From Candidatus Obscuribacteraceae bacterium (lineage in GTDB: Bacteria > Cyanobacteriota > Vampirovibrionia > Obscuribacterales > Obscuribacteraceae), in NCBI GenBank assembly GCA_044226015.1, contig JBGAHS010000002.1, positions 1,139,435 through 1,203,434 on the forward strand: a stretch of DNA of 64,000 nt, written 5' to 3'. The stretch's first letter is position 1. Each line of letters begins with the position of its first letter. A model generated the notes under the pieces. It was not told where the DNA came from. It worked only from the letters and a program-made list of their open reading frames with translations, and ran no database searches. Positions 8,111 through 56,503 of the stretch are shown piece after piece. The translations under genes and the position numbers were made by a program.

Positions 8111-8195
8111 TTTTGATCGATATCGATCAAAATCTCCATTTCTCGATCCCGCAAACCCAGTAAATTGCCTCTCCAAAATCGATATCGATCAAAAA
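8111..8195. repeat. Paired GATCGATATCGATC palindrome element
   Basis: ttttgatcgatatcgatcaaaa ... cccgcaaacccagtaaattg ... atcgatatcgatcaaaa. Confidence 0.9.
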
Positions 8196-13473: not shown

Positions 13474-14091
13474 CTAGTGCAAGTAGAATCCGTGTTTCCT
13501 CATTTCGATTACATCCTTCGCACCCGGCTTTTTATAGGTCCCCATCAGCCAATCAGCCAGAGGACAAACGATGCAAAAATTGACCTTCGGATAGGCATGA
13601 TGAAGAAAATGATTTCGCGCCAACCACAAACAAAGCGAAGATCGATTGAACCACTTCGCCCTCTTCTCAGGTTGAGTATGCATTTGGATGTGGATCAAAT
13701 TCCAAGCATTGTGATGAAGAAACAGCGAAAGCATAAAGATCACGGCGCCCAACCCAAAGACCATTCCGATGATACTGCTAAAGCCAAAGAAGAGGGCAAG
13801 TAAAAGCAGCGGTCCCCATATCCAGAAAGAAGCCACTTGCCCTTCAAAAACTGGAAGCTTGATGTTGACCTCCAGACAATCGCCTTCGGACTCATCGAAA
13901 TGAGTGCCAGGAAAACATTCACCATGATGGAAGTGCCGATGGCGATCCAACACACCTTTGAAGAAAGGCATCCGACGGGAGAGAACAGTCGGCTTGTGCA
14001 TCAGAACACCATGTGCAAAAAACTCGATAAAGGAGATGATCACATACGAAACTGCAAACCAGAAAGCGGTGATACCAATCCAGAAAAACAT
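13474..14091 (-). CDS. Fatty acid hydroxylase / sterol desaturase-like membrane di-metal enzyme (copy A)
   Basis: His boxes HGVLMH, HRHFHH, HIQMH and HFLHH, plus NFCIVCPLADWLMGT. Start uncertain (14091 or 14112). Confidence 0.75.
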   Translation of the reverse strand: MFFWIGITAFWFAVSYVIISFIEFFAHGVLMHKPTVLSRRMPFFKGVLDRHRHFHHGECFPGTHFDESEGDCLEVNIKLPVFEGQVASFWIWGPLLLLALFFGFSSIIGMVFGLGAVIFMLSLFLHHNAWNLIHIQMHTQPEKRAKWFNRSSLCLWLARNHFLHHAYPKVNFCIVCPLADWLMGTYKKPGAKDVIEMRKHGFYLH

Positions 14092-14401
14092 ATTTTGAAA
14101 ACCACCAATCAAATAATATTTTTTCGCAAACTGCGGTCATCCGAAAAACGCATTCCACGGCTTCTCAGGAGTAGCTGCAAACCGCGGAAATCAGTGAATC
14201 TTTAGCTGAAAGGGGTCAGCCTTCCCCAATCAAAATTCATCGAGACTTTTGAAAGCCTCAATTGAACTAGTAGTCGCAGCACATCATTTCTGCATCATTT
14301 CTGTTGAGACCATTCTTACGCGCAGAGCTTTTAAGAGTCCTGAAGGAACTCCTGCAGGTGCAACCTACTAGCAGCAAGCACAAATGCAACCAAGCAGTAG
14401 T

Positions 14402-15193
14402 CTACGCAGGAGGCGCCAGTGCAACGATTGCAGATCTCAACGCGTCAGAAGCAATCCTTGCATTCTCGTCTCTGTATTGTGATGACGGAATCATTTTTCC
14501 TACAAAAATGCGCACACCACCCCTGTAAAATGGAGCCAAGACGGTCATTAGAATTAGTTGAATCAGAATTGGATATTTGCATATCCAGGATCCAGGATAC
14601 CTTCCATATCGCATAAAAATCGGCACGAAATAAGCATTCCTGCCACAAGAAGCAGCCAGGTCCTTCGAGATGAGCACAGCACCAGGTTTGAACGGACCCA
14701 TCCTTCCGTCAAGATAGACCCAACCTTCCGGAAAAATTAGCAAGCTCTGTGCGCTTTGTAGAACTTTCAAGCCGGTGAGGCGGCTAGCCGTGAAGGCTCC
14801 GAATAATCCGAAGATCAGCCCGAATAGCCCCCCAAAGCTGTTCATCAAGGTTGGAGCTGCCATAGACCTTGGGTTCCACTTCTCCAGAAGCTGCAATGTC
14901 ACAAACGCATCGGCAATGTGCGTGTGATTGGGCGTGAAGATAAACGGCGTTTCTTGTGGCAGCTCTTCAAGATTTTCCACTCCTTCCACTTTGATTTTGC
15001 CGACCATGCTCCAACACAAGAAACGCAAGATATAGCGGCGAATCCACAAGAGAATCCCATTAGGAGCCGGTGGCAAAGAGCCCTTTATGCGATTGATAAG
15101 TATTCGCTTTCGAAGCGTAAGTACCGCCTCAAACGAGACTGCGATAAACAAACCACCGAGCAGAAGAAAAGCCAATTCTGTTAAAGACCGCAT
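14402..15193 (-). CDS. PlsC-type lysophospholipid acyltransferase (copy A)
   Basis: NHTHIAD (HX4D), IFPEG and FKPGA motifs; N-terminal TM helix. Confidence 0.9.
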   Translation of the reverse strand: MRSLTELAFLLLGGLFIAVSFEAVLTLRKRILINRIKGSLPPAPNGILLWIRRYILRFLCWSMVGKIKVEGVENLEELPQETPFIFTPNHTHIADAFVTLQLLEKWNPRSMAAPTLMNSFGGLFGLIFGLFGAFTASRLTGLKVLQSAQSLLIFPEGWVYLDGRMGPFKPGAVLISKDLAASCGRNAYFVPIFMRYGRYPGSWICKYPILIQLILMTVLAPFYRGGVRIFVGKMIPSSQYRDENARIASDALRSAIVALAPPA

Positions 15194-15254
15194 TTCTGCA
15201 GTCCTCCCTTCCTTTTTGCAAAATGAAATTTGTTATCTCGGCAAGATCCGAGAC

Positions 15255-16328
15255 CTAGAACAGACCATGAGCACAAAACACCGTTTCCGCCCGCTTAGCA
15301 AGCAGTTGCGGACGTTTTTGCAGTGCGGGTTTAGCATGCCGCCAATTGCCGAGTTCATACAAAACCTGCTTTACGAACTCAAGACGCTCTCCATGGAGAA
15401 CGCCTTCCAAAGCCAACCTCGCACAACAAGACTCAAACGCAATCAAAACTGCTAACCATTTCGCATCCTGCGAAAACGCGAATTGCAGTGCTGGCACATG
15501 ATAAATCTGCGGACGAAACTCAATCACGCCAACGGTGTCATCATCCCATTCCCATTTTTGATCGATACCCCAGGTGCGCCGGCATAGGGAATGGAAGGAT
15601 CCTGAAATAGGGTCTAAGCGGTCCACCGATAGGTTGCAGGCAATTATGGTTCGCGGATCCACACCAAAGTGCTGAATCTGCAACCCTACCGGACAAAACC
15701 CATAGCGACTCAAGGCACCATCGAACATCAACTTTCCCTGGTACTTCATAGCAGCGAAAACGCCAGGAATGCTACAGCTCATCCGAACCGCGTCCGACAA
15801 TTTAGGAGGCTCCAGCGAGAGCTGCTTCACGGAGTTATCTCTCTCAATCAGAAATACACCATCAGACTTGAACACGACCGGCATGCCAGATTTAGTTGTT
15901 GCCATCGTCCAGAACTTTGCCGGCCAATGCCCGCCGCATCCCCGAAACTCGGCAATTTTGTCCAGGTAATTACCAATCGATGAAGTTTGCAGCAAACCAG
16001 TGTGTCGACAATCTGTCGATGTAGCCTTGGATCCCAGAGCCGAAAGAAAATTCCTCAGCTGGCCCTTTGTCCCGATTTCGGCTTTGAAATCCAGTTCCAG
16101 CCCCAGATGCAAAAGTTGCACAGCATCCAGACCCAGACTGAGAAGAGCAGCGCAGATAGAGCCTGCACTTACACCACCGAGTGTGCGGAACTGCCTCAAC
16201 CCTGCAGCATGACAGGCTATCACAGCACCTAGACTTGCTAGAAACGACTGCGATCCTCCGCTGCTCAATGTCAGATGGTAGGCATTGCTGCTAATTGCTT
16301 TGTTTGAACCACTTTCAAAAACAGACAA
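15255..16328 (-). CDS. Patatin-like phospholipase (copy A)
   Basis: SSGG oxyanion loop, GVSAG nucleophile elbow, SCSIPGVF and FDG catalytic Asp. Confidence 0.9.
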   Translation of the reverse strand: MSVFESGSNKAISSNAYHLTLSSGGSQSFLASLGAVIACHAAGLRQFRTLGGVSAGSICAALLSLGLDAVQLLHLGLELDFKAEIGTKGQLRNFLSALGSKATSTDCRHTGLLQTSSIGNYLDKIAEFRGCGGHWPAKFWTMATTKSGMPVVFKSDGVFLIERDNSVKQLSLEPPKLSDAVRMSCSIPGVFAAMKYQGKLMFDGALSRYGFCPVGLQIQHFGVDPRTIIACNLSVDRLDPISGSFHSLCRRTWGIDQKWEWDDDTVGVIEFRPQIYHVPALQFAFSQDAKWLAVLIAFESCCARLALEGVLHGERLEFVKQVLYELGNWRHAKPALQKRPQLLAKRAETVFCAHGLF

Positions 16329-16802: not shown

Positions 16803-16886
16803 TTGATCGATATCGATCAAAATCCTGGTTTTTTGCACCCGCAAACCCAGTAAATTGTCCCCGCAAGATCGATATCGATCAAAATT
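16803..16886. repeat. Paired GATCGATATCGATC palindrome element
   Basis: Two copies about 62 bp apart with cccgcaaacccagtaaattg between them. Confidence 0.9.
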
Positions 16887-17263: not shown

Positions 17264-18409
17264 ATGGTAAGGCGCTTCGTTACTCGTTTTCTTCTGAACA
17301 ATGTGGAACCCACTCTGGAAACTCCGGAAAGGGACCTCCATCTTGTTTGTGGTGCTGGTGGGACTCGCGCTATCATCGGCTGCGCCGGTGCGGTGTTCGG
17401 CATGCATGCTATGGGAATGAACTCCTGGGCAAGCATAGGCGGTATCAGCGGTGGCTCATTGCCCACCCTGCTCTACGCTGCGGGCATCCACCCTCGTGCG
17501 CTGATGCGTCGAGCTCTCACCACTGATTTTTCGACCCTTGTCGTGAAGCGGCGGCATCTGCTGCAGGTTTTGCGCAAGTTCATGGGACAGGCGAAGCATG
17601 AGCGCCTGCCCCGCACTGCAGTTCACTGCTCCAAGGGGATGGTCAAGTTCATCGACGACCTCGTGCCCACGTGGCCCGACAAGTTCTGGACCATGGCCAC
17701 AACCGACCTGCCGAAGAAAGGGCGCTGCCAAGTTCTCTTCACCAAGAGAGGCGTCTTCCTCTACGACAAGCACGGCAACTGCGAGCAGCTCTCCTACCAC
17801 CCTGCGCCCGTCGGTCTTGCGATCGCCGCAAGTTGCGCAATCCCGGGTGTCATTGACCACGTCGAGTATCTGGGGATGCAACTGTATGACGGCATGATGA
17901 GCTGGGATGGGCGCACGCCCGCCCGGCTGGTCAAGCTGCATTACGGCGCTGCCTACGAAGACATCGTTGCAGTCGATGTGGGTGGCATCAAGCCACCGTT
18001 CCCGTCGCTGACCAAGCGCATCGCTGCCTACCTCTGTGACGATGACTGTCATCCCGACACCCACATGACGCCTGATCAGTGGGACGCGCTCGGTGTGCGG
18101 GTTGTGCGAGCCAACATTCACAATTTCGGCTCTCTGAACCTGAACCCGACACTGAAACAGCGTTCTCATGCCATGCGCCTGGGCTACACTGCGGCAGTGA
18201 GGACACTCTGTCCGAAACGCGGCAAATTCAAGTTCGATGCCAAAAAGCTGCTGGCTTCATCGCTGGAACAATTTGGCATCGAGCGTGGTGGCAAAACCAA
18301 GTCCTTCGCGGCTACCCAAGCGGAGCATGAGCCCAAGAAAACATCGAAGGCCAAAGCACCGCGTCGCAAGGCAAAACAAAAGGCTAGCAAGAAAATCAAA
18401 ATCAGCTAG
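17264..18409 (+). CDS. Patatin-like phospholipase with Lys-rich C-terminal tail
   Basis: GAGGTR, GISGG, SCAIPGV and YDG motifs. Confidence 0.9.
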   Translation: MVRRFVTRFLLNNVEPTLETPERDLHLVCGAGGTRAIIGCAGAVFGMHAMGMNSWASIGGISGGSLPTLLYAAGIHPRALMRRALTTDFSTLVVKRRHLLQVLRKFMGQAKHERLPRTAVHCSKGMVKFIDDLVPTWPDKFWTMATTDLPKKGRCQVLFTKRGVFLYDKHGNCEQLSYHPAPVGLAIAASCAIPGVIDHVEYLGMQLYDGMMSWDGRTPARLVKLHYGAAYEDIVAVDVGGIKPPFPSLTKRIAAYLCDDDCHPDTHMTPDQWDALGVRVVRANIHNFGSLNLNPTLKQRSHAMRLGYTAAVRTLCPKRGKFKFDAKKLLASSLEQFGIERGGKTKSFAATQAEHEPKKTSKAKAPRRKAKQKASKKIKIS

Positions 18410-35647: not shown

Positions 35648-36559
35648 CTAGCCTGTGATTTCAGGCTGCCGCACGTTGTCGCCCGGACGAGCAAGCCCGA
35701 GCGGGTCAAGCTCACAGACGCGAGTCTTGAGCAGCATCGTCGCCTTCTCAGCGATGTCGCCGTTTTCGTCGGCAGGCAGCTGGTCAGCAGCGATGGGTTC
35801 GCCGATGGTCACTGTGCATCCCGAGCGATAAATCGGCGCCAACAGCAAGCAGGCAACGTATTGCAGCTCGATTGGAATCTTGCGAATCCAATGGCCTGGG
35901 TAGCGTCCATACCGGATGTAGGCCGGCAGGATGTAGGCATTCTCTCCCAGTTTCTTGGCGGTCTCATGTGCGATGAGAACCGCGCCCTTTTTGAAGTAGC
36001 CCATGGCGCCATCGCAGTAGCTGTAGCCCTCCGGGAAGAGCACCAGAATGCGATTGCCGCGGCTCAGCAGGTCGATGGCTGCGTCACGAGCTGCACCGCC
36101 CTTGCCGCGCTCCAACGCGCAGGGAATGACGCCCATGGGTCCGAAGAGCAGCGCACCGAACCCACCGAAGATAGGGTAGAGTCCGACCGTAGCCATATAG
36201 CGCTCGCCCTTGCCGCGCAGCACTTCAGGCATCACAACAACATCTGCGAAGTTGCCGTGATTGGCGCATACAAGGAAGGACTTCCCGTTCAGCTTCTCAA
36301 GGTTTTCCATGCCCTTGATTTTGACCTTGCCGACCAGAAGCCAGAGGAAGAAACGCGTGATTTTGTCACGCCGCGCGAGTCCACTTGCGGTGGGCTCTTC
36401 GATGTTGCCCGAGCGAGACACTCGCTTGATGTAGTCAGCGTTGCGGCGCAGTACGCTGCGTGCCCACAGCCAGGCACAAAACGCCACCACACCGATGGTG
36501 ACAGCAATCCAGGACCAGAGCCCAAGGCCGAAGCCCCAGGCGAAAGTCGTCGCGATCAT
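35648..36559 (-). CDS. PlsC-type acyltransferase (copy B)
   Basis: NHGNFAD, LFPEG, FKKGA and RYGRYPGHWI motifs. Start placed at MIATT after GGAG. Confidence 0.9.
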   Translation of the reverse strand: MIATTFAWGFGLGLWSWIAVTIGVVAFCAWLWARSVLRRNADYIKRVSRSGNIEEPTASGLARRDKITRFFLWLLVGKVKIKGMENLEKLNGKSFLVCANHGNFADVVVMPEVLRGKGERYMATVGLYPIFGGFGALLFGPMGVIPCALERGKGGAARDAAIDLLSRGNRILVLFPEGYSYCDGAMGYFKKGAVLIAHETAKKLGENAYILPAYIRYGRYPGHWIRKIPIELQYVACLLLAPIYRSGCTVTIGEPIAADQLPADENGDIAEKATMLLKTRVCELDPLGLARPGDNVRQPEITG

Positions 36560-36953
36560 GTTCGTCTCCGATTCAGGAAATGAGATGGAAATGTTCGATG
36601 GGCTCGACGCCCTCGAACAGTCAGCGCAAAGACCTACGAGGACTTCTTGCTGACTCACGATGTTTAGCCGCCTTATTTCAAAGGCAGCGAAAAGGGGCTC
36701 CCCACGCGAGAAGCCCCTCTTGTTGCAGGGTCGAAACCCTGGATTAGTGCAGGCTCGGCTGAGCCGAACCATCACCGTCAGCCCGCCTGTTTCTGCACTT
36801 CCATGACCACGCGGACCTTTAGTTCGGTCCAGGAGTCTGGCTGCAGCGTATTGCACGGTCGCTATATCGGCAAGGTAGCCGGCGAAGCGGCTACCCTGCC
36901 CGGTTCCGAAGCAGTGCTGTCGCCCTGCATTCCGGTTCCCTGAAAGGTTGTAG

Positions 36954-38063
36954 TTAGTAGAGCCCGTGCTTGGCGAAGACCGCCTTCACCTTGTGAGTGT
37001 AGTACTGCGGCTTGCCCAGCGGGTTCGGCTGGAAGTCACGCCAGAATCCCAGTTCTGAGATGATGGTGCGAGCACGCTCCAGATTCTCTCCAGTCAGGAG
37101 CCCGTGCAGCGCCAGAACAGAGAGGGCGTCATTGAACGCCAGCAAGACAGCGAGCCACTTCTCATCGCTCGAGAGATGGAAACGCAGCGTCGAAGTATGC
37201 TGAATCGGCGGATGCAACTCAATCACCCCCGCGGTTTCCGGTCCCCAGTGAGAATCGGGGTGAGTCCGCCAGACCCAGCGAGCAGCCCGGTGCAGCCTGC
37301 CTGCCAGTGTGGTGGGGTGGATTTCGTTGCAGCGAATGGCGATCATCTTCTTCGGGTCGCGGCCGAAGTGCTCGATATGGAGCCCAACCGGGCAGTATCC
37401 GTACCGGCTCAGCCCGCCGTCGAAGAGCACGTTGCCCTTGTAGGACAGAGGCACCATCACACCACCGATGCTGCAGCTAGCCCGCACCGCCAGTGGCAGC
37501 GGGAGCGGTTCGTCGGAGAGCATGAGCCGCTCACCATCACGGAACAGGGTCGCTCCGTGCTCGTTGAATAGGATCGGATCTCCATATCGCGAAGTCGCGA
37601 TGCAGCTGTACCCCGACGGCCAGGACTCCAGCCCAGCCTGCTTCTGGAATGCGGCGATGGTATCGCCCAGGGACTCCGTGCCGAGCAGTCCGTACCACTG
37701 GCACTCGCGCCACTCGTCGCCATATCCGCGTACAGCGCGCGTGCACGTGAGCGGGTCGGTGAACGGAGCAGCGAAGATGCCGCGCTTGATACTGACCCGT
37801 TCGCGGAACTTGAGGTCCAGAGTGATATGGAGCAGCTCCTGAGGGCTGTACCCACAGGCGATGAGCGCACCGACGATGGAGCCCCCGCTGGCACCGTGAA
37901 CCTGGCGCCACTTGGAGATGCCGGCGACGTGAGCCGCCAGCTGGAAGCCCACACCGGCCATCAGCGAAGTGACACCACCAGCGCTGATATGAACCTCATA
38001 ATCAGAGGCGACGCCGTTGTTCTTCGCGCCTTGATTTTCATTCAACTGTTTCGAAGAGTTCAT
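36954..38063 (-). CDS. Patatin-like phospholipase (copy B)
   Basis: SAGG, GASGG, ASCSIGG and FDGG motifs. Start placed at MNSSK. Confidence 0.9.
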   Translation of the reverse strand: MNSSKQLNENQGAKNNGVASDYEVHISAGGVTSLMAGVGFQLAAHVAGISKWRQVHGASGGSIVGALIACGYSPQELLHITLDLKFRERVSIKRGIFAAPFTDPLTCTRAVRGYGDEWRECQWYGLLGTESLGDTIAAFQKQAGLESWPSGYSCIATSRYGDPILFNEHGATLFRDGERLMLSDEPLPLPLAVRASCSIGGVMVPLSYKGNVLFDGGLSRYGYCPVGLHIEHFGRDPKKMIAIRCNEIHPTTLAGRLHRAARWVWRTHPDSHWGPETAGVIELHPPIQHTSTLRFHLSSDEKWLAVLLAFNDALSVLALHGLLTGENLERARTIISELGFWRDFQPNPLGKPQYYTHKVKAVFAKHGLY

Positions 38064-38228
38064 GTTGGTCCTTCTTGGAAAAAAGTGAAGAGACGTGCAC
38101 CCTGGCACGCTCTTCGGTTACGCTGATTGGCTCTAGAAGCCGTTCAGCCCAATGTGCAAAAAAGGGAGTCAGGAAGCGTTCCCGCTTCCTGACTGAGTTG
38201 TTGACACCACTTGTTTCCCGCGGATGAC

Positions 38229-39161
38229 TTAGCGGCTCTGCTCAGCGAGGTCGAGCAGTTCGAGAACACGGTCGCGCAGAAACAGGCTCGCTTCGTCTTC
38301 ATCAGCCGGCAGGGTGCTGCTGTCGATGGGGTCGCCGACGACGACCACACCGCCATACAGAGTGATGTGCGAGCGGTAGTAGGCTTTGAGTTTCTGATCA
38401 CGTTCAGCCGTAACCTTCTCACGCTCTTCTTCGCTCATCTGGTCGAGGTCGAGCTTGAAGACCGGGTCCCAGTTGCGCGGGTCGCGCATGCCCAACCAGG
38501 CAGCCCGAGCCAGGAAGCGCTGAATCCAGTTCGCATTCTTCGGGTCACGTTCGTAGTAAAGAGCGACCGGAACGATATTGATCTTGGCACCGCCAGCCTT
38601 CTCCGAAGCCAATCGCGCAATGCGAACAGCACCAGGCAACCAGCGCTCGGTCAAGCGAGGGTTGTCCGGCAACAGGTTGCCTTCCGGGAAGATGCCGAAG
38701 CTACCATCTTCCTTGGCCAGCACGTCCACGCAAGTAGCTTGAGCAGCCGCGCGTTCAGACTTTTCCTTGAAATTGATCGAGATCGCACCGGTCCAGGCGC
38801 CCAGCACACCGAAGAAGCCCCGCAACTCCTTTCCGGAGGTCAGGGTTCGGAAGTGCCGATTTGTACCATGACGCAGCATCGCGAAGTCGCAGGGCATCTG
38901 GTGGTTGGCGATGTACATGGTTCGCCCCGAAAGAGGCGACTTGCGACGATTCACCACCTTGACCGGACCGACCGTCAGCAGGGTGAGCAGCTTGGTGGAG
39001 AAATTGAAGAAGATTTTGCCCCAGACGGTGGTGTAGGGGGCGGTGTAGCCGCTCTGCGTGAACTTGCGAGCGTGATACTTCCAGACACGGTACCAGCGAA
39101 CAGCAGCTGCGACGCAGAGGAACGCCAGACCGAGCCAGAGGTAGCCTTGAACAGACATCAT
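38229..39161 (-). CDS. PlsC-type acyltransferase (divergent)
   Basis: NHQMPCD, IFPEG and PGAVRIA motifs; N-terminal TM. Confidence 0.88.
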   Translation of the reverse strand: MMSVQGYLWLGLAFLCVAAAVRWYRVWKYHARKFTQSGYTAPYTTVWGKIFFNFSTKLLTLLTVGPVKVVNRRKSPLSGRTMYIANHQMPCDFAMLRHGTNRHFRTLTSGKELRGFFGVLGAWTGAISINFKEKSERAAAQATCVDVLAKEDGSFGIFPEGNLLPDNPRLTERWLPGAVRIARLASEKAGGAKINIVPVALYYERDPKNANWIQRFLARAAWLGMRDPRNWDPVFKLDLDQMSEEEREKVTAERDQKLKAYYRSHITLYGGVVVVGDPIDSSTLPADEDEASLFLRDRVLELLDLAEQSR

Positions 39162-39797: not shown

Positions 39798-40182
39798 AAA
39801 TTAGATCGATATCGATCTAATTCGGGCTTTTTAATAGCTTTTCGATGTCGCGTAGATTTTCTCGGGCTTGCCAACCCCGCAGATTTTCCCCTCTGGAATG
39901 CCAGCAAATTTTCCCGACTTCATCGATATCGATCCAACTTCGCCTTTTAACTAGTCTTTCGACTACGCAGATTTCTTCGTAGCTTGCCAACTCCGTAGAT
40001 TTTCCCCGCCCGAAACCCAGCAAATTTTCCCGACTTCATCGATATCGATCCAACTTCGCCTTTTTACTAGTCTTTCGACTACGCAGATTTCTGCGTAGCT
40101 TGCCAACTCCGTAGATTTTCCCCGCCCGAAACCCAGCAAATTTTCCCGACTTCGTCGATATCGATCCAACTTCGCCTTTTTA
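39798..40182. repeat. Tandem array, about 3.3 copies of a 118-bp unit, each carrying the tcgatatcgatc palindrome
   Basis: Palindrome cores at about 39805, 39923, 40040 and 40156 with near-identical sequence between them. Confidence 0.93.
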
Positions 40183-42506: not shown

Positions 42507-45500
42507 ATGTGTACAGCAATCATCGGCTTCATTATGCTTATGAGCCTGCTGGTGAGACGCCTCATCAGCGGACCTTCTAGCATGAAGCCAAAAAAACAAG
42601 CAAAGTGCCCCTTCCGCTTTCTTGCGCGGAAAGAGACCGAACCCGTCAAGCAGTCTGCGGACGGGCTTGGCTGGGAAGAGAACTTTCTCTTCGGCAGCCA
42701 CCAACACGAAGTGGCCTTCATCGACCAGGCGGCCCAGGACATCCACCGCGTCCAGCAGAACAACCGCAAGTCCGGCAAAGCTGCCTGCATCTTCCGAGCC
42801 TTCCACGCCAAGCCACTTGCGGCGATGAAGAATGCGGAACTGCACGTTGCTGAAGACATCCCCGCGGAGCTACGCGTGGGCATCCTACAGCCAGGCAAGA
42901 AGTACAGCAGCACGCTGCGCTTCTCGAACGCCGCCGGCACAATGAAATCAGACCTCGGCAAAGATCTGCGAGGCATCGCGCTGCGTGTCCACACCGAAGA
43001 GGGTGAACACGACCTACTCGCCACCAACGGGCGAGCTTCGCATGCGCGTAATGCGTGGCAATTCATCGCATTCGCACTTGCGATGTCGGGGTCAAAGTTG
43101 CTCATGCCGTTCCGGCTCATCTGGAGTGTTGGTCTTTTCGAAGCTGTCCGTATGATTCGCACGGCAAGCCGCCAGGCGTCGCGCAAGATCAACAGTGCAG
43201 CCACAGAGACCTACTTCAGCCGTGCCGCGTACGCAGTGGGCGAGCGCGCCGTGAAGTTCCAACTGACGCCTTGTGCGACTGAGGAACTGGGCATCGAGCG
43301 AACGCCAGAATACCTGCATGCCGATCTGGTTGAGCGGCTGAAGCGCGGACCTGTGGTCTTCAACCTGCAGGTTCAATACTTCAAAAACGAGACGGAAACG
43401 CCTGTCGAAGACGGCTCCGTCGAGTGGAACACTCCGCTCATCACCATCGCGCAAGTCGTGATTCCGCAACAAGACCTGTATTCTCAGGAAGCCGTTGCGG
43501 TGCAAGTCGAGGTCGACAACCTCGAGTTCAACCCCTGGAATGTAACGACGGGATTCCGTCCACTGGGCAGCCAGAACCGTGCGCGGCTCCTCGTCTACAA
43601 GGCGAGCGCAGCGTTGCGGAAAGGCGGCTCAGATTCCGGTCTTTCACAGAAAGGACAAAATTCCATGAGTCATGACGATCAGCAACGACGCTGTCCGTTC
43701 GGATTCGGCGGCAAGAATCAGCCTGACGGCACACAGCCTGACGGCAGCGAAGCGAAGATCTGGCGCCCTCGTTCGCGCCGGGTCGGCTTCAGGTTGGTCA
43801 GCTATGTGCTGCTCAACGCTTTCTACTGGGTTATGGAGACGATCAACCGCGGTCTCTCCCGTGACCCGAACCGCAAGGTGTCCTGGGACAAGTGGCCCAC
43901 GCCGCTCGGACTGATGTACCTTCTCGCAAAGATCTGGTACGTGCGCTCCAACGCCCTCACGGACCCCTACGACTATGCCACCAACGACGTGAAGGACATG
44001 GGTCCGGAACCCGAGGCGGCGAAACACGGCTACCTGCCCGACGGCAGCTGGGCGCTCGATAACGATGACCCTCAGATGGGAACACCCGGCACGCGTTTCG
44101 GCTCCAATATTCCGCCGAAGAAGGTGCGCCCTGACGTGGAGGAGATGACTCCAAGCGCTCGGGAAGCGGGCAAGCTGCGCTGGCGTCGGCTCGACGAGAA
44201 CGGCAAGGAAATCACCATTCCTGCGCTGATTCTCAGCGACCTCGCTGGCGGCTGGATTCAGTTCCAGTTCCACAACTTCGGCGGAAACACACTGCGTGAC
44301 CCCGTCACACAGTGCCCGCATCTGATGAAGCGCGACCCCAAGGACAACTGGCCGGGCAACGTTGCTCGCATCGACCGAACCACTGCGGACCCGACGCGCG
44401 TGACGGATAACGGTCGCCCCACGCCGATCAACGAGAAGACGGTAGCGTGGGTGCAGGGTCAGATCTACGGCAACAACGGCGACGAGCAGAACGCGCTGCG
44501 CTCCTTCGAGGGCGGCAAATTCGCGCTCGAAGCCGACCTGCGCCTACCGGAAGATCCGAACAAGCCGGGCATCGACCACACCGGTTTCAACAACAACTAC
44601 AACCCGCTGCTGAGCTTCTTGCACTGGCTCTTCGTGCAAGAGCACAACGCCATCGCCGACCATTACGCCTACTTCTACCCGGAGTGGGATGATGAAAAGC
44701 TTTTCCAGATGGCGCGCAAGGTCAACGTTGCGCAAATCGCCCGCATCCACACCATCCAGTGGACGGAAGACCTGCTGCAACATCCGACCCTGCAACTCGG
44801 CATGCACACTGACTGGTACGGCTTCCTCGGTCAGCGCACCAAGATGTACCTGATGCGCCTGGCGCATCGGTCGCCCTTCGTTGCTCGGCTCATCAAGCCG
44901 TTGCAAGGACAGGACGCCATCTGGGGCATGCCCGGCTCGAAGTGGGAACACCACGACGGTCCGTTCCAGGTGCCGAAGCACTTCCGGATGGTCTATCGCC
45001 TCCATGAGCTCATCCTCAGCGAGCGAGAAATCGTCCAGCCCGGCACAGACAAGCTGCTCGAGCGCGTGGATCTGATCAACTTCGTCCACAGCAACACGCG
45101 TCCGCTCGTCGCCAAATACGGCTACGAAACGCTCGCCTACAGCTTCGTGCGCAAGTCGTGTGGCGCTCTCACGCTGCACAACTTCCCGCGCGCGCTGACG
45201 CAGTTCGAAAACCAGCAGGACGGCGAGTTGACCGACCTGGCGGAACGGGACCTCCTTCGTGAGCGCACCGACGGCACCGGCACTTATAACGAGTTCCGGC
45301 AGTCTGTGGGTGAACCGCCCGTTACGTCCTTCCTCGAGCTGACCGGCGGCGACGCCGAGCTTGCTCGTGAGCTGGAAATCAAATACGAAGGCGACGTGGA
45401 CAAGGTGGACGCGGGCATCGGCATTCTCGCCGAACCCAAGCCTGCCGGCTTCGCGCTCGGCTTCTGCCAATTCTACCAATTCGTCCTGAATGCCCCTCGT

Positions 45501-46655
45501 CGAGTGAAGAGCAATCGACACCTGACGGAAGGCTTCACCTACGCCGAATACGCGGAAGGCATGGACTGGGTGGAACACGGTGGTGGCATGCTCGGTGCCA
45601 TGGCTCGGCACTTGCCGGGTCTCCGTTCACAGATGGAGGGCGTCACTCGCGCGTTCTCGCCCTGGAAGGAAACGGAAACCTTCCCGCATCGTCAATTGCA
45701 GGAAACGCACAAGGACACGGCCAACGTGTTCAAGGCGGACCTGCGCACCTTTGTTCTGGCAGTCGTTACGGCTGTCCTGGCGACCATGTCCGGCGCGATA
45801 CCCGCTTGGGTAGCGACGGGTGCGGTAGCGTGTATCACGCTCATCCCACTGGCTCTGACTGTGCGCCGTATGCTCGCCATGCGGTTCATGCAGATTTGCT
45901 GGAAGAAGTGCTACACAGACAAGCGTGGGTTCATGTTCGGAACATTGACTCGCGCCGAGAACTCCATCAACAGTGCGGCGCACTTCGGTGCTCTGCACGC
46001 GCTCGCGGTGATGGTCGGTTCGCTCGGATTGGCTGCGTTCTTTGGCTCCAGCTTCCCGCTGCTGTCTGCGCTGCTGGTTCTTGTGTCCATCAGCTCGCTC
46101 GGGGTGCGCAAGTGGTCGAAGTCTTTTGCTGCGAACGCACAGGTGCTGCGAATTGCCCTGCGTAATCGCATGCGAGACGGTCAACCGCAAATCGACCCCT
46201 GCGACATTGCAGGCAGCTCCGCCTTCGAAAAGCGGTTCTGCTTCAATCGTGAGCTGCCAGCTCGCGTTCGGGCTTCGGCGAGCAAAGACAACCATGTTTA
46301 CAGCTGCTACGGCGACGTAGACATGGAAGAATTTGAGCGCCTCTTCCGGACTTACGCACCGGGTCGCGACCACCTGACTGCCTACGACTTCAATCGCATG
46401 GCAGAACAGGAGTCGCTCTATGCCGGCAGCAACTTCATGAGCCGCTTCGTAGCTCGCTTGTCGATGCTGCGTCGTTCTCACGAAGTGCTGCACCTGTTCG
46501 GCGACACCATCGTCGAAGAGGACAAGAAGCTGGTTCCGGCAATCAGCAAGGGCATGCTGCTGAGCTTCTACCAGGGCACTGCCCAAGCTCAGCTGAAGCG
46601 GGAGCACGAAGAAGGGGACACTGACCCCAGCCCGCAGCCCCGTCAGTCCAGGTAA
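42507..46655 (+). CDS. Fusion protein: catalase-related domain + alpha-dioxygenase-like heme peroxidase + TM helices + caleosin-like C-terminus
   Basis: Catalase-like: RAFHAK, RFSN, DLRGIALRV, DLLATN, RPLGSQNRARLLVY. Dioxygenase-like: WIQFQFH, EHNAI, RIHTIQWT, VYRLH, YNEFRQ, PRR. Tail: YSCYGDVDMEEFERLFRTYAPGRDHLT...ISKGMLLSFYQG. Confidence 0.85.
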   Translation: MCTAIIGFIMLMSLLVRRLISGPSSMKPKKQAKCPFRFLARKETEPVKQSADGLGWEENFLFGSHQHEVAFIDQAAQDIHRVQQNNRKSGKAACIFRAFHAKPLAAMKNAELHVAEDIPAELRVGILQPGKKYSSTLRFSNAAGTMKSDLGKDLRGIALRVHTEEGEHDLLATNGRASHARNAWQFIAFALAMSGSKLLMPFRLIWSVGLFEAVRMIRTASRQASRKINSAATETYFSRAAYAVGERAVKFQLTPCATEELGIERTPEYLHADLVERLKRGPVVFNLQVQYFKNETETPVEDGSVEWNTPLITIAQVVIPQQDLYSQEAVAVQVEVDNLEFNPWNVTTGFRPLGSQNRARLLVYKASAALRKGGSDSGLSQKGQNSMSHDDQQRRCPFGFGGKNQPDGTQPDGSEAKIWRPRSRRVGFRLVSYVLLNAFYWVMETINRGLSRDPNRKVSWDKWPTPLGLMYLLAKIWYVRSNALTDPYDYATNDVKDMGPEPEAAKHGYLPDGSWALDNDDPQMGTPGTRFGSNIPPKKVRPDVEEMTPSAREAGKLRWRRLDENGKEITIPALILSDLAGGWIQFQFHNFGGNTLRDPVTQCPHLMKRDPKDNWPGNVARIDRTTADPTRVTDNGRPTPINEKTVAWVQGQIYGNNGDEQNALRSFEGGKFALEADLRLPEDPNKPGIDHTGFNNNYNPLLSFLHWLFVQEHNAIADHYAYFYPEWDDEKLFQMARKVNVAQIARIHTIQWTEDLLQHPTLQLGMHTDWYGFLGQRTKMYLMRLAHRSPFVARLIKPLQGQDAIWGMPGSKWEHHDGPFQVPKHFRMVYRLHELILSEREIVQPGTDKLLERVDLINFVHSNTRPLVAKYGYETLAYSFVRKSCGALTLHNFPRALTQFENQQDGELTDLAERDLLRERTDGTGTYNEFRQSVGEPPVTSFLELTGGDAELARELEIKYEGDVDKVDAGIGILAEPKPAGFALGFCQFYQFVLNAPRRVKSNRHLTEGFTYAEYAEGMDWVEHGGGMLGAMARHLPGLRSQMEGVTRAFSPWKETETFPHRQLQETHKDTANVFKADLRTFVLAVVTAVLATMSGAIPAWVATGAVACITLIPLALTVRRMLAMRFMQICWKKCYTDKRGFMFGTLTRAENSINSAAHFGALHALAVMVGSLGLAAFFGSSFPLLSALLVLVSISSLGVRKWSKSFAANAQVLRIALRNRMRDGQPQIDPCDIAGSSAFEKRFCFNRELPARVRASASKDNHVYSCYGDVDMEEFERLFRTYAPGRDHLTAYDFNRMAEQESLYAGSNFMSRFVARLSMLRRSHEVLHLFGDTIVEEDKKLVPAISKGMLLSFYQGTAQAQLKREHEEGDTDPSPQPRQSR

Positions 46656-46825: not shown

Positions 46826-47095
46826 TGATCGATATCGATCAAAAACGCTGTTTTGCAATCCCCGAAACCTAGCAAATTGGCCGAAACTGATCGATATCGA
46901 TCAAAAATCCGCTTTGCAGATTTCGGAACTCAAGAGCTGAAACTCCTGACATTCACACAAAGAAAATGCCCCTTTTCATCGATCCCCAAATCCCAATAAA
47001 TTGTCGGGATTTGATCGATATCGATCAAAAACACGGTTTCGCGATCCTCGAAACCCAAAAAATTGCCCCAAAAAGATCGATATCGATCAAAATCC
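46826..47095. repeat. Cluster of four GATCGATATCGATC palindromes in two pairs
   Basis: Cores at about 46827, 46889, 47013 and 47075 with cgaaacc.a..aaattg linkers. Confidence 0.92.
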
Positions 47096-50260: not shown

Positions 50261-50483
50261 AAGCTCTCATAACAGAGTCAATATGCCCGCTTAATGGCAA
50301 AATCGGCGACGGATAAAGCAACTGAAGTCATTAGTCGAACTCAGAAGCAGTTTGCACTTTTGTTGCACGTTAGCTCGATTATTCTTCAAGTGTTCCAGTT
50401 GGAACACCCAATCTCTTACTAAATACAACTTCGAAAGTGACGGACCCGTCACTCTTGTTTCTTCCATCACGGGGGCTTGCACA

Positions 50484-51956
50484 ATGGCTGAGAACGAAAT
50501 CAACCAAAACCAGGAATCGCAGATCGAAAAATCAGGTGCTGCAGAATCCAGTAATCTCAATGCGAATGATTATCAGCAAGGTGCGAACGCTGCTTCCCTC
50601 GATTCACAAAAACAGGCCACCGATGACCTGGTCAAAAACAATTCTCTCCCTTCACTTCAGCTAGCCGACAATTCGAAAAACAATGGCTCGGACATTTCAA
50701 ATAAAGACGGCAAGCCATCAGACAATATGAGCAAAGAAGGCAATTCTACCGATAACAAGGAAGGCAAAGTCGGCGAAAAGAATTCCGCAGGTGATAAAGG
50801 TCAATCCGAAGGAAAAAACTCGCAGTCACAAAAGACTGACAGCGACCACGCCATGCCAAATGGTAAATCAGATTCATCAAGCGGACAGCCTAACGGCAAG
50901 TCAGCCCAAGAAGGTACCCCTCGTGGAGACGGACAGGGCGGACAGCCTAACGGTAAATCAGCCGAAGAAGGATCCCCTCATGGAGATGGCAAAGGCGGTC
51001 AGCCAAACGGCAAGTCAGCCCAAGAAGGCACCCCTCGTGGAGACGGACAGGGCGGACAGCCTAACGGCAAGTCAGCCCAAGAAGGTACCCCTCGCGGAGA
51101 CGGACAGGGCGGACAGCCTAACGGCAAGTCAGCCCAAGAAGGCACCCCTCGTGGAGACGGACAGGGCGGTCAGCCAAACGGCAAGTCTTCTGAAAAAGAA
51201 TCGCAAAGCAATTCTCCCAAAGGTGACTCCCAACATGGTGTTCCAAACGGCAAAGAAGCCGACAATAACGGAAGCCCTAAGGGTGACTCCCAGCATGGTG
51301 TTCCAAACGGCAAAGAAGCAGACAATAGCGGAAGCCCTAAAGGCAACTCACAGCATGGTGTTCCAAACGGCAAAGAAGCAGACAATAGCGGAAGCCCTAA
51401 GGGTGACTCACAGCATGGTGTTCCAAACGGCAAAGAAGCCGACAATAGCGGAAGCCCTAAGGGTGACTCACAGCATGGTGTTCCAAACGGCAAAGAAGCC
51501 GACAAGAACTCAAGCTCTGGAAAACCTGGCTCCGGAACAGAAAAAAATGAAAACGGCAAACCCGGATCGAGCGAAGCTAAGCCAAATAACAATCTAGATC
51601 CATCCAGCGAAAAAGGTACCCCGAAAGATTACGAGAAATCCTCTCTGCCGCCCGACAACGGAGGATCCAAAGGATCCAAAGATTACGGGACAAAAGAGAA
51701 TAAACAAATCGACTCAAAAGATGGGCACGGCACACACGACAACAAAGAACTAAACGATCAGAAGAATAAGAACGGACAGATGGAATCAAAAGACAGTTCC
51801 GACTCGAAGGAACACAACGACCCCAATAGCAAACAAAAAGATGTGCCATCCGAACAAAAGGAAAAGGACGGACAGAAGAGCAAAGCCGAGTCAAAGAACC
51901 ATCTACCAGACATGTTCATCACTGGTCTCGACGCCAGCAAGAAGGTAAGAAAATAG
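50484..51956 (+). CDS. Hypothetical low-complexity repeat protein
   Basis: About 5 copies of GQPNGKSAQEGTPRGDGQG (57 bp) and about 4.5 copies of SPKGDSQHGVPNGKEADNSG (60 bp). Start placed at MAENE. Confidence 0.75.
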   Translation: MAENEINQNQESQIEKSGAAESSNLNANDYQQGANAASLDSQKQATDDLVKNNSLPSLQLADNSKNNGSDISNKDGKPSDNMSKEGNSTDNKEGKVGEKNSAGDKGQSEGKNSQSQKTDSDHAMPNGKSDSSSGQPNGKSAQEGTPRGDGQGGQPNGKSAEEGSPHGDGKGGQPNGKSAQEGTPRGDGQGGQPNGKSAQEGTPRGDGQGGQPNGKSAQEGTPRGDGQGGQPNGKSSEKESQSNSPKGDSQHGVPNGKEADNNGSPKGDSQHGVPNGKEADNSGSPKGNSQHGVPNGKEADNSGSPKGDSQHGVPNGKEADNSGSPKGDSQHGVPNGKEADKNSSSGKPGSGTEKNENGKPGSSEAKPNNNLDPSSEKGTPKDYEKSSLPPDNGGSKGSKDYGTKENKQIDSKDGHGTHDNKELNDQKNKNGQMESKDSSDSKEHNDPNSKQKDVPSEQKEKDGQKSKAESKNHLPDMFITGLDASKKVRK

Positions 51957-53273: not shown

Positions 53274-53622
53274 GGGGCTTCTTGACCGATTTGATCAAAA
53301 ACCCTCTTTATTGGGTTTCGGGGATCTCAAAATCAGGATTTTGATCGATATCGATCTAGTGGAGGCAATTAGTTGGCTTTCCGGCTCTGATGTTAAGGGG
53401 GCGCAATTCTCCTCATGAGATCTCCCTCAGCGTCGACAGCGGATCCGCATTCGAAACTTGGGTTACGCCAAGGGGCTTCTTCACCGATTTGATCAAAAAC
53501 CCTCTTTATTGGGTTTCGGGAATCTCAAACTCAGGATTTTGATCGATATCGATCTAGTGGAGGCAATTAGTTGGCTTTCCGGCTCTGATGTTAAGGGGGC
53601 GCAATTCTCCTCATGAGATCTC
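53274..53622. repeat. Approx. 150-bp direct repeat x2 (198-bp period) containing the palindrome
   Basis: ggggcttctt.accgatttgatcaaaaaccctc...ttttgatcgatatcgatctagtggagg...catgagatctc occurs twice. Confidence 0.93.
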
Positions 53623-53854: not shown

Positions 53855-54478
53855 CTACCGCGTGAAGCCATGCTTTTTCATGTCTTCAATGTCCTTTTCA
53901 CTTGGCGCCTTGTACGTTCCCATGATCCAATCCGCCAGCGGAGTCACCACGCAGAAGTTCACACGCGGATACACGTGGTGCATGTAGTGATAGCGAGCCA
54001 GATAGAGACACAGTGACGACTTTGCGAACCAGCGAGCACGCTTATCCCGGTTGGTATGCATTTGCACATGAATAAAGTTCCATGTGACGTGATGCACCGC
54101 CAGTGACACCATGAAGGTCACACCGACCACACACAAAGAAAGCCCCACAGTGGTTGCAATGCCGCAGCAGTAAGCAGCGATAAACAGGGGCGCCCAAGCC
54201 CAACTCGCGGCGAGTTGCCCAAACAAAATTCGCAGATGGATGTTTACCGTCAGACAGTCGCCCTCCGCCTCATCGAAATGACGCCCGGGAAAGCACTCGC
54301 CGTGATGGAAAGTGCGATGCTCATGCAGCGTTTCATTGAAGAACTTAAACCGCTTGCTGAACCATGTGGGCTTGTGCATGAAGACGCCGTGGCTGATCCA
54401 CTCGATGAAGGAAATCAGGACATAGGAAAAGGCGAGCGAAGCGATGAAAACAACCGCCCAGAAGAGATTCGAAGTCAT
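53855..54478 (-). CDS. Fatty acid hydroxylase / sterol desaturase-like enzyme (copy C)
   Basis: HGVFMH, HRTFHH, HVQMH, HYMHH and NFCVVTPLADWIMGT; close paralog of 13474-14091. Confidence 0.78.
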   Translation of the reverse strand: MTSNLFWAVVFIASLAFSYVLISFIEWISHGVFMHKPTWFSKRFKFFNETLHEHRTFHHGECFPGRHFDEAEGDCLTVNIHLRILFGQLAASWAWAPLFIAAYCCGIATTVGLSLCVVGVTFMVSLAVHHVTWNFIHVQMHTNRDKRARWFAKSSLCLYLARYHYMHHVYPRVNFCVVTPLADWIMGTYKAPSEKDIEDMKKHGFTR

Positions 54479-54532
54479 AGTTGTAAGTAAAGTAAATCGG
54501 TTAAAGAAGAAACAGCGCCCTGCATGGGTTCG

Positions 54533-55321
54533 CTAATCTATAGACTCAGGTTTCAGTTTCAGAATTTCAGTCCGCAGCATTTCTGCCGCCTCCTTATCCG
54601 CCGAAGGCAATTTATCACTGCTGATGGGCTTACCGAACCGCACAACGACACCCCGACGGAAGGACAGAAAACCAAGCAGCAGCATCAGATACTGCAACCG
54701 AATGGGGAATCGTTTGATCCACGGGCCCGGATATCTGCCGTAGCGAATGAACACCGGCAAGAGAAAGCTTTCGCGCTGGGTCTCACGCGCAACTGCCTTG
54801 CAAATGTTAACTGCACCGGTGCGGCAGCGCCCCATTTCACCATCGAGATAAGTCCAGCCCTCTGGAAAAATCACCTGAGGCTCACCATTGAGAACGACCT
54901 TCAGACCGGACTTGCGGCTTGCTGCGTAGGCGCCCATTTTGGAGACCAGCCAACCGAACAAACCGAAGAAACCAGACATCACACCAGGGTCAGCCATGTA
55001 GCGCATCCGCCGTTCATTGAGAACGGGTGGCAACACAAAGATGTCTGCGAAATGAGAATGGTTCGGCGTGATCTGATAGCTGTACTCCGCAGGAACCGCA
55101 CTGAGATTCTCACCCCCCAGGACCCTAACCCTGCCGACGAAAACCCAGGTCAGAAAGCTCGAGAGCCGACGTTGCCAGCGCCAACCACGCACCGTAGGCG
55201 GTGGCGGTACATACCCAGGCGTCCGCAACTCAGAAAGCTTGGCGCGAAACTGCGTCAGGCGTCCACGCTGAGAGTAACACACTGCAAGCAGCGCAGAGAG
55301 TGGAATAATCCAATTGAGCAT
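54533..55321 (-). CDS. PlsC-type acyltransferase (copy C)
   Basis: NHSHFAD, IFPEGW and RYGRYPGPWI motifs. Confidence 0.9.
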   Translation of the reverse strand: MLNWIIPLSALLAVCYSQRGRLTQFRAKLSELRTPGYVPPPPTVRGWRWQRRLSSFLTWVFVGRVRVLGGENLSAVPAEYSYQITPNHSHFADIFVLPPVLNERRMRYMADPGVMSGFFGLFGWLVSKMGAYAASRKSGLKVVLNGEPQVIFPEGWTYLDGEMGRCRTGAVNICKAVARETQRESFLLPVFIRYGRYPGPWIKRFPIRLQYLMLLLGFLSFRRGVVVRFGKPISSDKLPSADKEAAEMLRTEILKLKPESID

Positions 55322-55390
55322 AGAGAAAGAAGTTGAATTTTACCTGGACTGTGTTTCGCTCTCGACCCGCCAGGAAGGTCGAGCGTTTTC

Positions 55391-56503
55391 TTACAGAAGT
55401 CCGTATTCTCTGAACACCTGCGAAGCTACGTCAGCAAGATGTTGTGGCTTCTTCTTGCAGGGCACAGGGTGGCGGTCGCGCCAGAATCCAATCTTGCCCA
55501 TAAGTTCACGAGCAGTCATCAGGCGCTCGCCATGCAACAAGCCGGCGAAGGCAAGTCGGTTAAGACAAGCCTCGAAGCTCACCATGATGCCGTACCATTT
55601 CTCATCCGGCGTAAGCTTGAACTTAAGTGTGTGCACGTGGTCGATCTCTGATCGTACTTCCATGACGCCGGTGGTCTCATCACCCCAGTCAAAACGAGGG
55701 CTAATGAGCCAGAGTCGCCGCGCCCAACGATACAGCCGCCTCATCATCGGCTTCAGGCTTGGCTCGCTGACGCGACAAGCCAGAACATGGTCAGGACGCG
55801 CTCCGAAGCGCCGTATGTTGATACCCACCGGGCAAAACCCGTCCTCCGTTAGCGCGCCATCGAAGAGGTGCAGCCCCTTGTAGCGAAGGGCTGAGATGAC
55901 ACCAGGAATGGTGGCACTAGCGCGCACGGCAAGTCCGAGGGACGCAGGAGTGTCCGAGAGCACGGTCTCCTTGCCAGAGCGCTCATCGATATGAAACACA
56001 CCATCTTTGTTGAAGACCACCGGAGAACCGTTCTTGCTCGTAGCGAGAGTAGAAAAGTTAGCCGGCCATTGACCATCCAGCCCCAACTCGCTGGCGTATT
56101 TTTCAATCACGTTGCCGAGTCCAGCACTGCTGTATAGTCCGGTTAGCCGAGACTCGGTCCAATCAGCGTGAGAAGGCCGAACAGCGGGGGCACCAAAGCA
56201 AGCGAACACAGGACTTAGCAAACCGCCATTAAAGGACATCATCCTATCGAAGTCGTGGTCCAGGGCGACGCGCAATAGCTGTGCGGATTTCATACCGCAA
56301 GCCAGAAGCGCGGTTACGACAGCTCCGCCACTTACACCGAAGAGCCTGCGCCACTTGTTGATACCCGCGAGTTCGCAGGCAGCAGCGGTACCGACACCCG
56401 CCAGCACGGCGGCAGATCCTCCGCTGCTAATTGCCAGCTCAAGGTCGTTGAGATCAAGCTCGGACTGACCTCGCCGACATTGAAACATACAGGATTTTTT
56501 CAT
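55391..56503 (-). CDS. Patatin-like phospholipase (copy C)
   Basis: SSGG, GVSGG, SATIPGV and FDGA motifs. Confidence 0.9.
   Translation of the reverse strand: MKKSCMFQCRRGQSELDLNDLELAISSGGSAAVLAGVGTAAACELAGINKWRRLFGVSGGAVVTALLACGMKSAQLLRVALDHDFDRMMSFNGGLLSPVFACFGAPAVRPSHADWTESRLTGLYSSAGLGNVIEKYASELGLDGQWPANFSTLATSKNGSPVVFNKDGVFHIDERSGKETVLSDTPASLGLAVRASATIPGVISALRYKGLHLFDGALTEDGFCPVGINIRRFGARPDHVLACRVSEPSLKPMMRRLYRWARRLWLISPRFDWGDETTGVMEVRSEIDHVHTLKFKLTPDEKWYGIMVSFEACLNRLAFAGLLHGERLMTARELMGKIGFWRDRHPVPCKKKPQHLADVASQVFREYGLL

Follow-up and report, generated by a model that had tools for sequence, protein, structure and literature searches.

A catalase-fold domain fused to an alpha-dioxygenase-type domain and a caleosin remnant in a predicted membrane protein of an Obscuribacteraceae bacterium

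What becomes of the unstable product of an alpha-dioxygenase (alpha-DOX) in bacteria? The pairing of such a dioxygenase with a catalase-fold partner addresses this question, which is raised here by a single gene in a window of 64,000 nucleotides (nt) from Candidatus Obscuribacteraceae bacterium (GenBank assembly GCA_044226015.1, contig JBGAHS010000002.1, positions 1,139,435 to 1,203,434 of the forward strand). The gene lies at 42507..46655 (+) of the window. A first-pass annotation had described it as one 1382-amino-acid (aa) open reading frame (ORF) encoding a three-enzyme chain of catalase-like, alpha-DOX-like and caleosin-like domains. The ORF list and translation confirm the single frame, which has no internal stop. 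As judged from its sequence, the protein appears to be a predicted membrane-bound alpha-dioxygenase coupled to a catalase fold, as that description held, but with a dead third domain: a two-enzyme chain, its catalysis predicted, rather than a three-enzyme line. We propose, with a probability of roughly 0.55, a two-step membrane enzyme whose dioxygenase would make 2-hydroperoxy fatty acids and whose catalase domain would convert them, with 2-hydroxy acids as the most probable product.

The alpha-dioxygenase-type heme domain (aa 455-1055; 43869..45671, +) has a Pfam An_peroxidase match at aa 519-1009 (8e-50). Its best solved relatives are the alpha-DOX of rice (2.5e-59) and Arabidopsis (8e-57), with an identity to the plant enzymes of ~30% as estimated from the PDB alignment, whereas cyclooxygenase (COX) matches at 2e-8 and myeloperoxidase at 7e-6 or weaker; a greater closeness to true peroxidases, which the first-pass annotation had named as evidence against its reading, is thus not seen. 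The four motifs that it had listed (WIQFQFH, RIHTIQWT, VYRLH and PRR) are all present and carry His589, His748, Tyr830/His833 and Arg998/Arg999. Counted on the alignment with a three-residue offset, His589, His748, Tyr830, His833 and Arg999 correspond to rice His157, His311, Tyr379, His382 and Arg559, where His157, Tyr379 and His382 are numbered as we take them to be in the rice enzyme. Tyr830 stands opposite the sole residue changed to Phe in the mutant entry 4kvl. Tyr830, His833, His748, Thr753 and Arg999 are invariant in 21/21 four-part and 45/45 three-part relatives, and His589 is kept in 21/21 and 44/45, respectively; Gln585 completes the set of active-site residues in the domain. Rice His311 and Arg559 define C2 oxygenation, according to the title of a reference cited in PMC8720084. 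Alpha-DOX-like genes are known from five phyla of bacteria, and three from cyanobacteria have active products, as given in the accessible parts of PMC8720084 and PMC9305512. In the first step, the dioxygenase would very probably oxygenate a free fatty acid with O2 at its C2 through a Tyr830 radical, as in the plant and cyanobacterial enzymes, with the substrate carboxylate held by His748, Thr753 and Arg999.

On its N-terminal side lies a mini-catalase domain (aa 50-378; 42654..43640, +), with a Pfam Catalase match at aa 97-190 (6e-9) and a predicted model (predicted local distance difference test, pLDDT, 96) that has the catalase core fold. In a fold search its nearest neighbor was MAP2744c (Z 28.7, root-mean-square deviation (rmsd) 3.0, 282 aligned), followed by a coral allene oxide synthase (AOS; Z 26.5, rmsd 3.1, 281 aligned), with the other coral entry at Z 24.7. 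True catalases came lower (1e93 at Z 23.9, rmsd 3.3, 268 residues aligned of a 476-aa chain), catalases and EasC together spanning Z 23.7-23.9. The core measures 329 aa, against ~480 aa or more for full-size catalases, and reaches 15 bits with NCBIfam HPII, whose cut-off is 1102. A related-locus search using this domain alone gave no matches.

The heme pocket of this domain is altered. The distal His100 in RAFHAK and the proximal Tyr364 in RLLVY are present as first annotated, and His100, Arg360 and Tyr364 are kept in 127/127 fused catalase domains. The Asn of DLLATN, by contrast, had been misassigned as the distal Asn: in ungapped alignments to 1hbz and 4b7f, Asn174 falls on the second Asn of the catalase GNN motif and Thr173 on the first, which we take to be the catalytic Asn of catalases (human Asn148). 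In the same alignments Ser178-His179 replace the channel Phe-Phe of catalases, again in 127/127 fused domains, and the combination of Thr173 and His179 is invariant in these 127 and found in 145/159 domains of a wider set. Coral Thr66 corresponds to Phe99 here and coral Asn137 to Thr173, as mapped via the alignment to catalases and not residue by residue to 1u5u; because of these two differences the affiliation with AOS and hydroperoxide lyase (HPL) that had been proposed for the N-terminal domain is not supported. A wider "Thr-His hallmark" of catalase-related AOS/HPL is reportedly stated in a review. For the coral AOS pocket (T66, H67, N137), the available portion of PMC5617202 describes the Thr before the distal His as catalytic in coral AOS/HPL and Asn137 as non-essential. 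The domain thus appears to fall outside both the standard catalases and the AOS/HPL group and to be an unstudied catalase-fold type. In quick trees, two-part and four-part proteins share a single clade of catalase domains, from which stand-alone mini-catalases of the same genomes are separated (support 99-100). One such stand-alone gene of the host genome (L023:6895-7836, G000:C6) encodes a 313-aa mini-catalase of another clade, with Val-His, Ala at the Asn site and the Phe-Phe kept.

The C-terminal part of the protein is a membrane bundle followed by a remnant. Four hydrophobic peaks (aa 1074-1203) and, in the predicted model, four long helices at aa 1059-1223 (pLDDT 95; 45681..46175, +) describe a four-helix bundle, predicted to be transmembrane, and so agree, as a prediction, with the several transmembrane helices noted earlier. 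A further hydrophobic segment, a predicted membrane anchor, opens the protein (aa 1-23; 42507..42575, +) and occurs in 19/21 four-part fusions versus 5/118 two-part fusions. Fold searches with the tail gave no match at E 0.001 in one case and generic four-helix bundles only in another, which barely covered the caleosin part. The caleosin-derived remnant itself (aa 1224-1382; 46176..46655, +) comprises the C-terminal half only. Of the three Pfam families expected at the first pass, Catalase and An_peroxidase were matched, but Caleosin (PF05042) scored 17.5 bits against a cut-off of 27, aligning to profile positions 74-124 of 170 and leaving 1-73 unmatched. Longer, full-length relatives (P0059, P0187 and P0218) pass this cut-off, which argues that the tail descends from caleosin. 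The two heme-His positions were anchored on relatives P0181 and P0218 using caleosin motifs that presumably mark them. In the window protein Arg1243 occupies the first position, the second is without His, and the two are 15 residues apart versus 69-87 in full-length relatives, a deletion of ~60 residues; across relatives no tail His is conserved above 50%. As to descent, the caleosin-like tail seems to have been recognized correctly, but it is a truncated remnant. Its core (aa 1269-1370) is still conserved, with 21/102 columns at 90% or more, which suggests a role that is likely structural. Caleosin peroxygenase activity requires both heme His, and an EF hand and lipid domain define the family, according to the accessible text of PMC6309107. 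As the tail has lost the two invariant heme His along with its EF hand and lipid hairpin, the caleosin/peroxygenase step assigned to it is unsupported.

We considered a rule by which gain of the catalase goes with loss of the caleosin hairpin, the deletion being found in 21/22 catalase-fused proteins, and rejected it for its exceptions: where a catalase of this clade is encoded separately, 4/5 loci keep a full, His-less caleosin domain, and hairpin-deleted tails are scattered across the dioxygenase tree. A search with the P0218 tail found no true caleosins among shorter proteins, and an Atlas search with the P0008 tail gave no usable match. In 41 related genomes PF05042 had 2 matches, both of them tails of another alpha-DOX paralog, and none in the genome studied here. 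That genome carries a second alpha-DOX-like gene (L022:7291-9987; G000:C4, about 142300-145000; see also L024 and L011), which is 28% identical, has odd spacing at the catalytic Tyr and ends in a caleosin-like EF-hand tail with the first His missing; in its G006 ortholog the first tail His is present and the tail passes the Pfam cut-off. This group is a separate dioxygenase-caleosin fusion lineage. Among 44 long proteins scanned, 6 have alpha-DOX-like domains fused to lipoxygenase-like domains, and 1 has a fusion to cytochrome P450 (together P0193, P0202, P0215, P0222, P0252, P0270 and P0223, all metagenomic).

The four-part fusion is not an assembly artefact, since an independent contig has no indel in the ORF and 21 further four-part proteins or loci were recovered. 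In sequencing run X2, from an independent study, a single contig spans 42000-47200 with 22 substitutions and 2 indels, both indels outside the ORF, and none of the substitutions listed introduces a stop codon into it, including between the domains, where a stop in reads had been named as evidence against the single chain. An apparent stop at 43274 in run X3 was dismissed: it is one of a pair of changes that share a codon on a single contig and jointly give no stop. Run X11, labelled as RNA, covers 3/30 bins only and is probably DNA. The 21 four-part cases, in which the architecture that was to be sought elsewhere was indeed found, exclude the duplicate of the query and count a few genes twice, once as a protein and once as a locus.

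The coupling of catalase and dioxygenase is a recurrent one. The 181 proteins whose domain make-up was examined include 104 catalase-dioxygenase fusions, 45 of the dioxygenase-bundle-caleosin type and 22 with all four parts, and the two-domain fusions carry names from Streptomyces, Rhizobium, Mycobacterium, Rhodococcus and Scytonema. One catalase clade is thereby fused to two distinct alpha-DOX clades, as the dioxygenases of the 104 two-part proteins are 30-37% identical to the query and form a separate clade in a FastTree tree. In 107 genomes of the order we found 18 loci of the query dioxygenase clade, in 17 genomes. The mini-catalase is fused or directly upstream at 16/18: N-terminally fused at 9, C-terminally fused at 1 (G013) and encoded by a separate upstream gene at 6. 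Five of these separate genes (G087, G088, G089, G091 and G092) lie 47-235 nt upstream, belong to the same catalase clade, are 52-55% identical and have the same signature; the sixth, in G105, belongs to another clade. No catalase was found at the two remaining loci (G020; the second locus of G105, 1.5-kb flanks), whose dioxygenases end in an extra C-terminal domain. This domain of ~150 aa, without Pfam match, is found in catalase-less members (L018, L043; P0026, P0043, P0049, P0174) and is a candidate alternative second enzyme. Separate catalase genes nest among the fused ones, a single clade of the 17 N-fused domains was not rejected (p-AU 0.069, quick tree), and by sequence the gene appears related to the two-gene operon of its relatives. 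The coupling proposed at the first pass recurs as N-fusion, C-fusion and adjacent genes. Mini-catalases of other clades, too, are found next to the dioxygenase or fused to it (L033, L052 and L053), which we counted in favor of the pairing. C-terminal catalase fusions were also seen at L053:67-3957 and L062, one of them from a record titled Elusimicrobiota and 29% identical. In a Planctomycetota record (L052:4802-5830), the upstream catalase-fold gene has Asn replacing the distal His.

In the second step that we propose, the catalase-fold heme would probably act on the dioxygenase product, converting the 2-hydroperoxy acid before it decays. In such an acid the carboxylate adjoins the peroxide, and the invariant polar residues Ser178, His179 and Arg181, which sequence alignment places near the distal side, could hold this carboxylate. 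The chances that the product would be a 2-hydroxy acid seem about even; a Cn-1 aldehyde is a less likely outcome, and a 2-oxo acid or another product the least likely. Reduction to the 2-hydroxy acid is favored as the step that caleosin takes beside alpha-DOX1 in Arabidopsis and that would here have been lost with the decayed tail; alpha-DOX1 and the caleosin AtCLO3 yield the 2-hydroxy acid, as stated in the accessible part of PMC6914826.

Several observations weigh against this two-step reading, and some of them point to a doubtful alternative, that 2-hydroperoxy acids decay alone to Cn-1 aldehydes and the catalase domain handles only H2O2 or other small peroxides, as a means of protecting the tyrosyl-radical enzyme or of tuning it. 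According to the portion of PMC9305512 available, H2O2 sets alpha-DOX going, and the 2-hydroperoxy products decarboxylate to aldehydes unaided. The domain has no Thr-His, the residue before the distal His being Phe99 here, Phe, Leu, Gln or Val in relatives and Thr in 0/145 domains. Many dioxygenase genes are without a catalase partner: none lies within the flank at 18/33 loci of a GTDB scan (some flanks short), including 13/14 titled Elusimicrobia, these loci overlapping the 107 genomes of the order, and the dioxygenase-caleosin unit thus seems to work without such a partner. Unrelated mini-catalase clades can occupy the partner slot, and an internal start in the gene, described below, would permit forms with and without the catalase domain. 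Other points bear on the signature itself. The 14/159 domains off the signature include 6 dioxygenase-fused ones (the others are 7 stand-alone mini-catalases of other clades and 1 row, L053c, that was excised in the wrong frame and is left out of the domain types); the counted domains were gathered by likeness to the query from proteins of 760-2419 aa; Atlas look-alike clusters of the domain (0.96) are of 329-402 aa, a stand-alone size; and the placement of Ser178/His179 beside the heme comes from sequence alignment and the catalase structure in general. In addition, the lipid genes around the locus are not conserved in related genomes beyond acyltransferases in 2/5 wide loci. A role in handling H2O2 is nonetheless at odds with a pocket in which invariant Thr replaces the catalytic Asn of true catalases and invariant Ser-His their channel Phe-Phe, with a 329-aa domain that covers the catalase core only, and with the other catalase-family matches in the genome, including the stand-alone mini-catalase on contig C6.

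It is also conceivable, although improbable, that the middle domain oxygenates another position, perhaps an allylic carbon, or another lipid, perhaps an esterified acyl chain that the bundle would deliver, and that the catalase domain turns the product over by a lyase or epoxide-synthase reaction of the Nostoc or coral kind. The ~30% identity to plant alpha-DOX leaves room for this, the domain belongs to a clade of its own in which the motif following the distal His and the WWDGS site are both changed, and a four-helix bundle is foreign to known alpha-DOX; yet the equivalents of His311 and Arg559 are invariant, COX matches are 50 orders of magnitude weaker, and the catalase domain has no AOS-type Thr-His/Asn. 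The chain of three working enzymes, with the tail as an active peroxygenase that reduces the hydroperoxide, is very unlikely despite the caleosin descent of the tail. Of 92 tails of relatives, 70 have Arg and 4 have His at the first heme-His position, 1 has His at the second, and 0/92 combine the two His, which are needed for activity (PMC6309107, accessible text). With neither His in the window protein, ~60 residues including EF hand and hairpin lost, and no conserved tail His, we rejected an active caleosin tail. The two-step conversion of 2-hydroperoxy acids thus remains our preferred reading.

The junction between the two enzyme domains holds a possible second start. A ribosome-site-like AGGA motif at 43650-43655 precedes by 9 nt an in-frame ATG at codon 387 (43665-43667; feature 43650..43667, +); of the 34 inner ATGs it alone has such a motif, compared with a genome background of 4-6% of inner and 33-38% of first ATGs. 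The residues encoded from there on are similar to the beginnings of stand-alone dioxygenase proteins, and the dioxygenase genes of the five split loci begin at the same place behind the same motif, so the site is homologous to stand-alone starts. It is weaker by duplex energy, ranking 5th of 35 against a generic anti-Shine-Dalgarno sequence. The internal start is kept in 5/9 fused loci (G000, G004, G007, G025 and G028) and absent from 4/9. It could be either a leftover or functional as a second start, and where retained could give a shorter form without the catalase domain. A wider scenario is tentative: the Thr/Ser-His mini-catalase clade would be a widespread enzyme devoted to 2-hydroperoxy fatty acids, with a reaction new to the catalase fold and no need of the Thr-His hallmark, that replaced a decayed caleosin in Obscuribacterales, and the gene would make two in-frame proteins that switch output between 2-hydroxy acid and aldehyde.

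The gene lies on contig C1 of an 8.19-Mb genome with 47% GC, and its GC content at third codon positions (0.75, versus a genome median of 0.45) is in the top 1.1% of 964 long frames. The closest named relatives of the protein are from Ca. Obscuribacterales, among them P0006, which is 85% identical in the middle domain. Its neighbors in the window include, by Pfam, patatins, acyltransferases, an acyl-CoA synthetase, an acyl-CoA dehydrogenase and an enoyl-CoA hydratase, a setting that we counted in favor of the two-step reading. An M20 peptidase gene that is directly upstream in G002, G004 and G007 lies 14 kb upstream here; between the two, on the other strand, are the acyl-CoA dehydrogenase, acyl-CoA synthetase and enoyl-CoA hydratase, two acyltransferases and a patatin. 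The lipid-gene setting fits fatty-acid handling, but is no conserved operon. Cassettes of patatin and acyltransferase, in part with a fatty-acid-hydroxylase-like gene, are repeated at 13474-16328 (-), 53855-56503 (-), 35648-39161 (-) and 17264-18409 (+), and the window holds four patatins and four acyltransferases in total; the ORF at 53855-54478 has His-box motifs and no Pfam hydroxylase match. A 12-bp palindrome (doubled ATCGAT) forms arrays with 62- or 116-bp periods. All 29 genomic copies lie inside C1 1.092-1.207 Mb, a 115-kb stretch that includes the gene, and 15/29 are in the window (1191, 8116-8178, 16806-16868, 26732, 39805-40038, 46828-47076 and 53344-53542); the palindrome may be the sign of an island or serve for protein binding. 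The segment 42266-42413, immediately before the gene, holds 4-5 degenerate 30-bp tandem repeats that are almost unique in the genome and possibly regulatory. At 50352-51956 (+) is a gene for a low-complexity protein of 534 aa, which contains tandem repeats of 19 and 20 aa and has no Pfam match. A promoter scan stayed at chance level (3 versus 3.5), and a tRNA scan found none.

The first-pass annotation had considered the architecture undescribed. We found no publication on a catalase-alpha-DOX fusion in literature searches that covered sources other than subscription papers and supplements, although the two-domain pairing is common in databases (104/181). A superfamily review mentions P450 fusions and not the catalase fusion in its accessible part (PMC4420034), and the words "catalase", "fused" and "fusion" are absent from the accessible text of PMC8720084, whose sequence lists may hold such fusions. 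The new elements are the pocket with Thr and Ser-His, the internal start, and the occurrence of split and C-terminally fused forms. Over 100 proteins in databases have the pairing with its fixed, unusual catalase active site, and many of them come from Streptomyces, Rhizobium and Mycobacterium that can be cultured, so the question of the fate of the dioxygenase product is directly testable. If our proposal is correct, the pairing would represent a new reaction for the catalase fold and a bacterial route of enzymatic alpha-oxidation or to 2-hydroxy acids, and would offer a tool for steering alpha-DOX biocatalysts, used for aroma aldehydes, toward a single product. Caleosin-derived domains in bacteria, moreover, decay beside alpha-DOX, the plant partner of caleosin.

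How does the protein compare with known systems? For the catalase domain, the closest in sequence and fold is the 33-kDa MAP2744c of Mycobacterium avium paratuberculosis (3e4w; E 9e-14), which has Gln in place of the catalase Asn and which we take to have peroxidase activity; it is stand-alone, 28% identical and, unlike the query, without the Ser-His pair. With plant and cyanobacterial alpha-DOX (rice 4kvj/4kvk, Arabidopsis 4hhr; CsDOX, CalDOX and LepDOX) the protein shares the distal Gln/His, the Tyr-x-x-His and the His/Thr/Arg carboxylate site, but it is fused to a catalase, a four-helix bundle and a caleosin remnant, belongs to a separate bacterial clade and has a predicted activity. Its tail shares descent with caleosin/peroxygenase (PF05042), whose heme His, EF hand and hairpin it lacks; in Arabidopsis the pair of alpha-DOX1 and CLO3 makes a 2-hydroxy acid from the same intermediate as proposed here, as far as the accessible source goes. 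In the coral AOS/HPL-lipoxygenase fusions (1u5u, 3dy5), an N-terminal mini-catalase with the heme His/Tyr is likewise joined in one chain to a fatty-acid dioxygenase (fold Z 24.7-26.5), but the partner is a non-heme lipoxygenase and the pocket has Thr66/Asn137 where the query has Phe99/Thr173. Nostoc punctiforme has a heme dioxygenase, 10S-DOX, that works with a separate catalase-related hydroperoxide lyase, as cited in the accessible part of PMC13049297; that pair consists of a COX-type C10 oxygenase and a partner in separate genes, whereas the query is of alpha-DOX type, fused, and has a Phe-His/Thr/Ser-His pocket. By analogy, the protein described here would work like the Nostoc pair and the coral AOS-lipoxygenase fusions, in the activity we propose for it, while belonging to neither.

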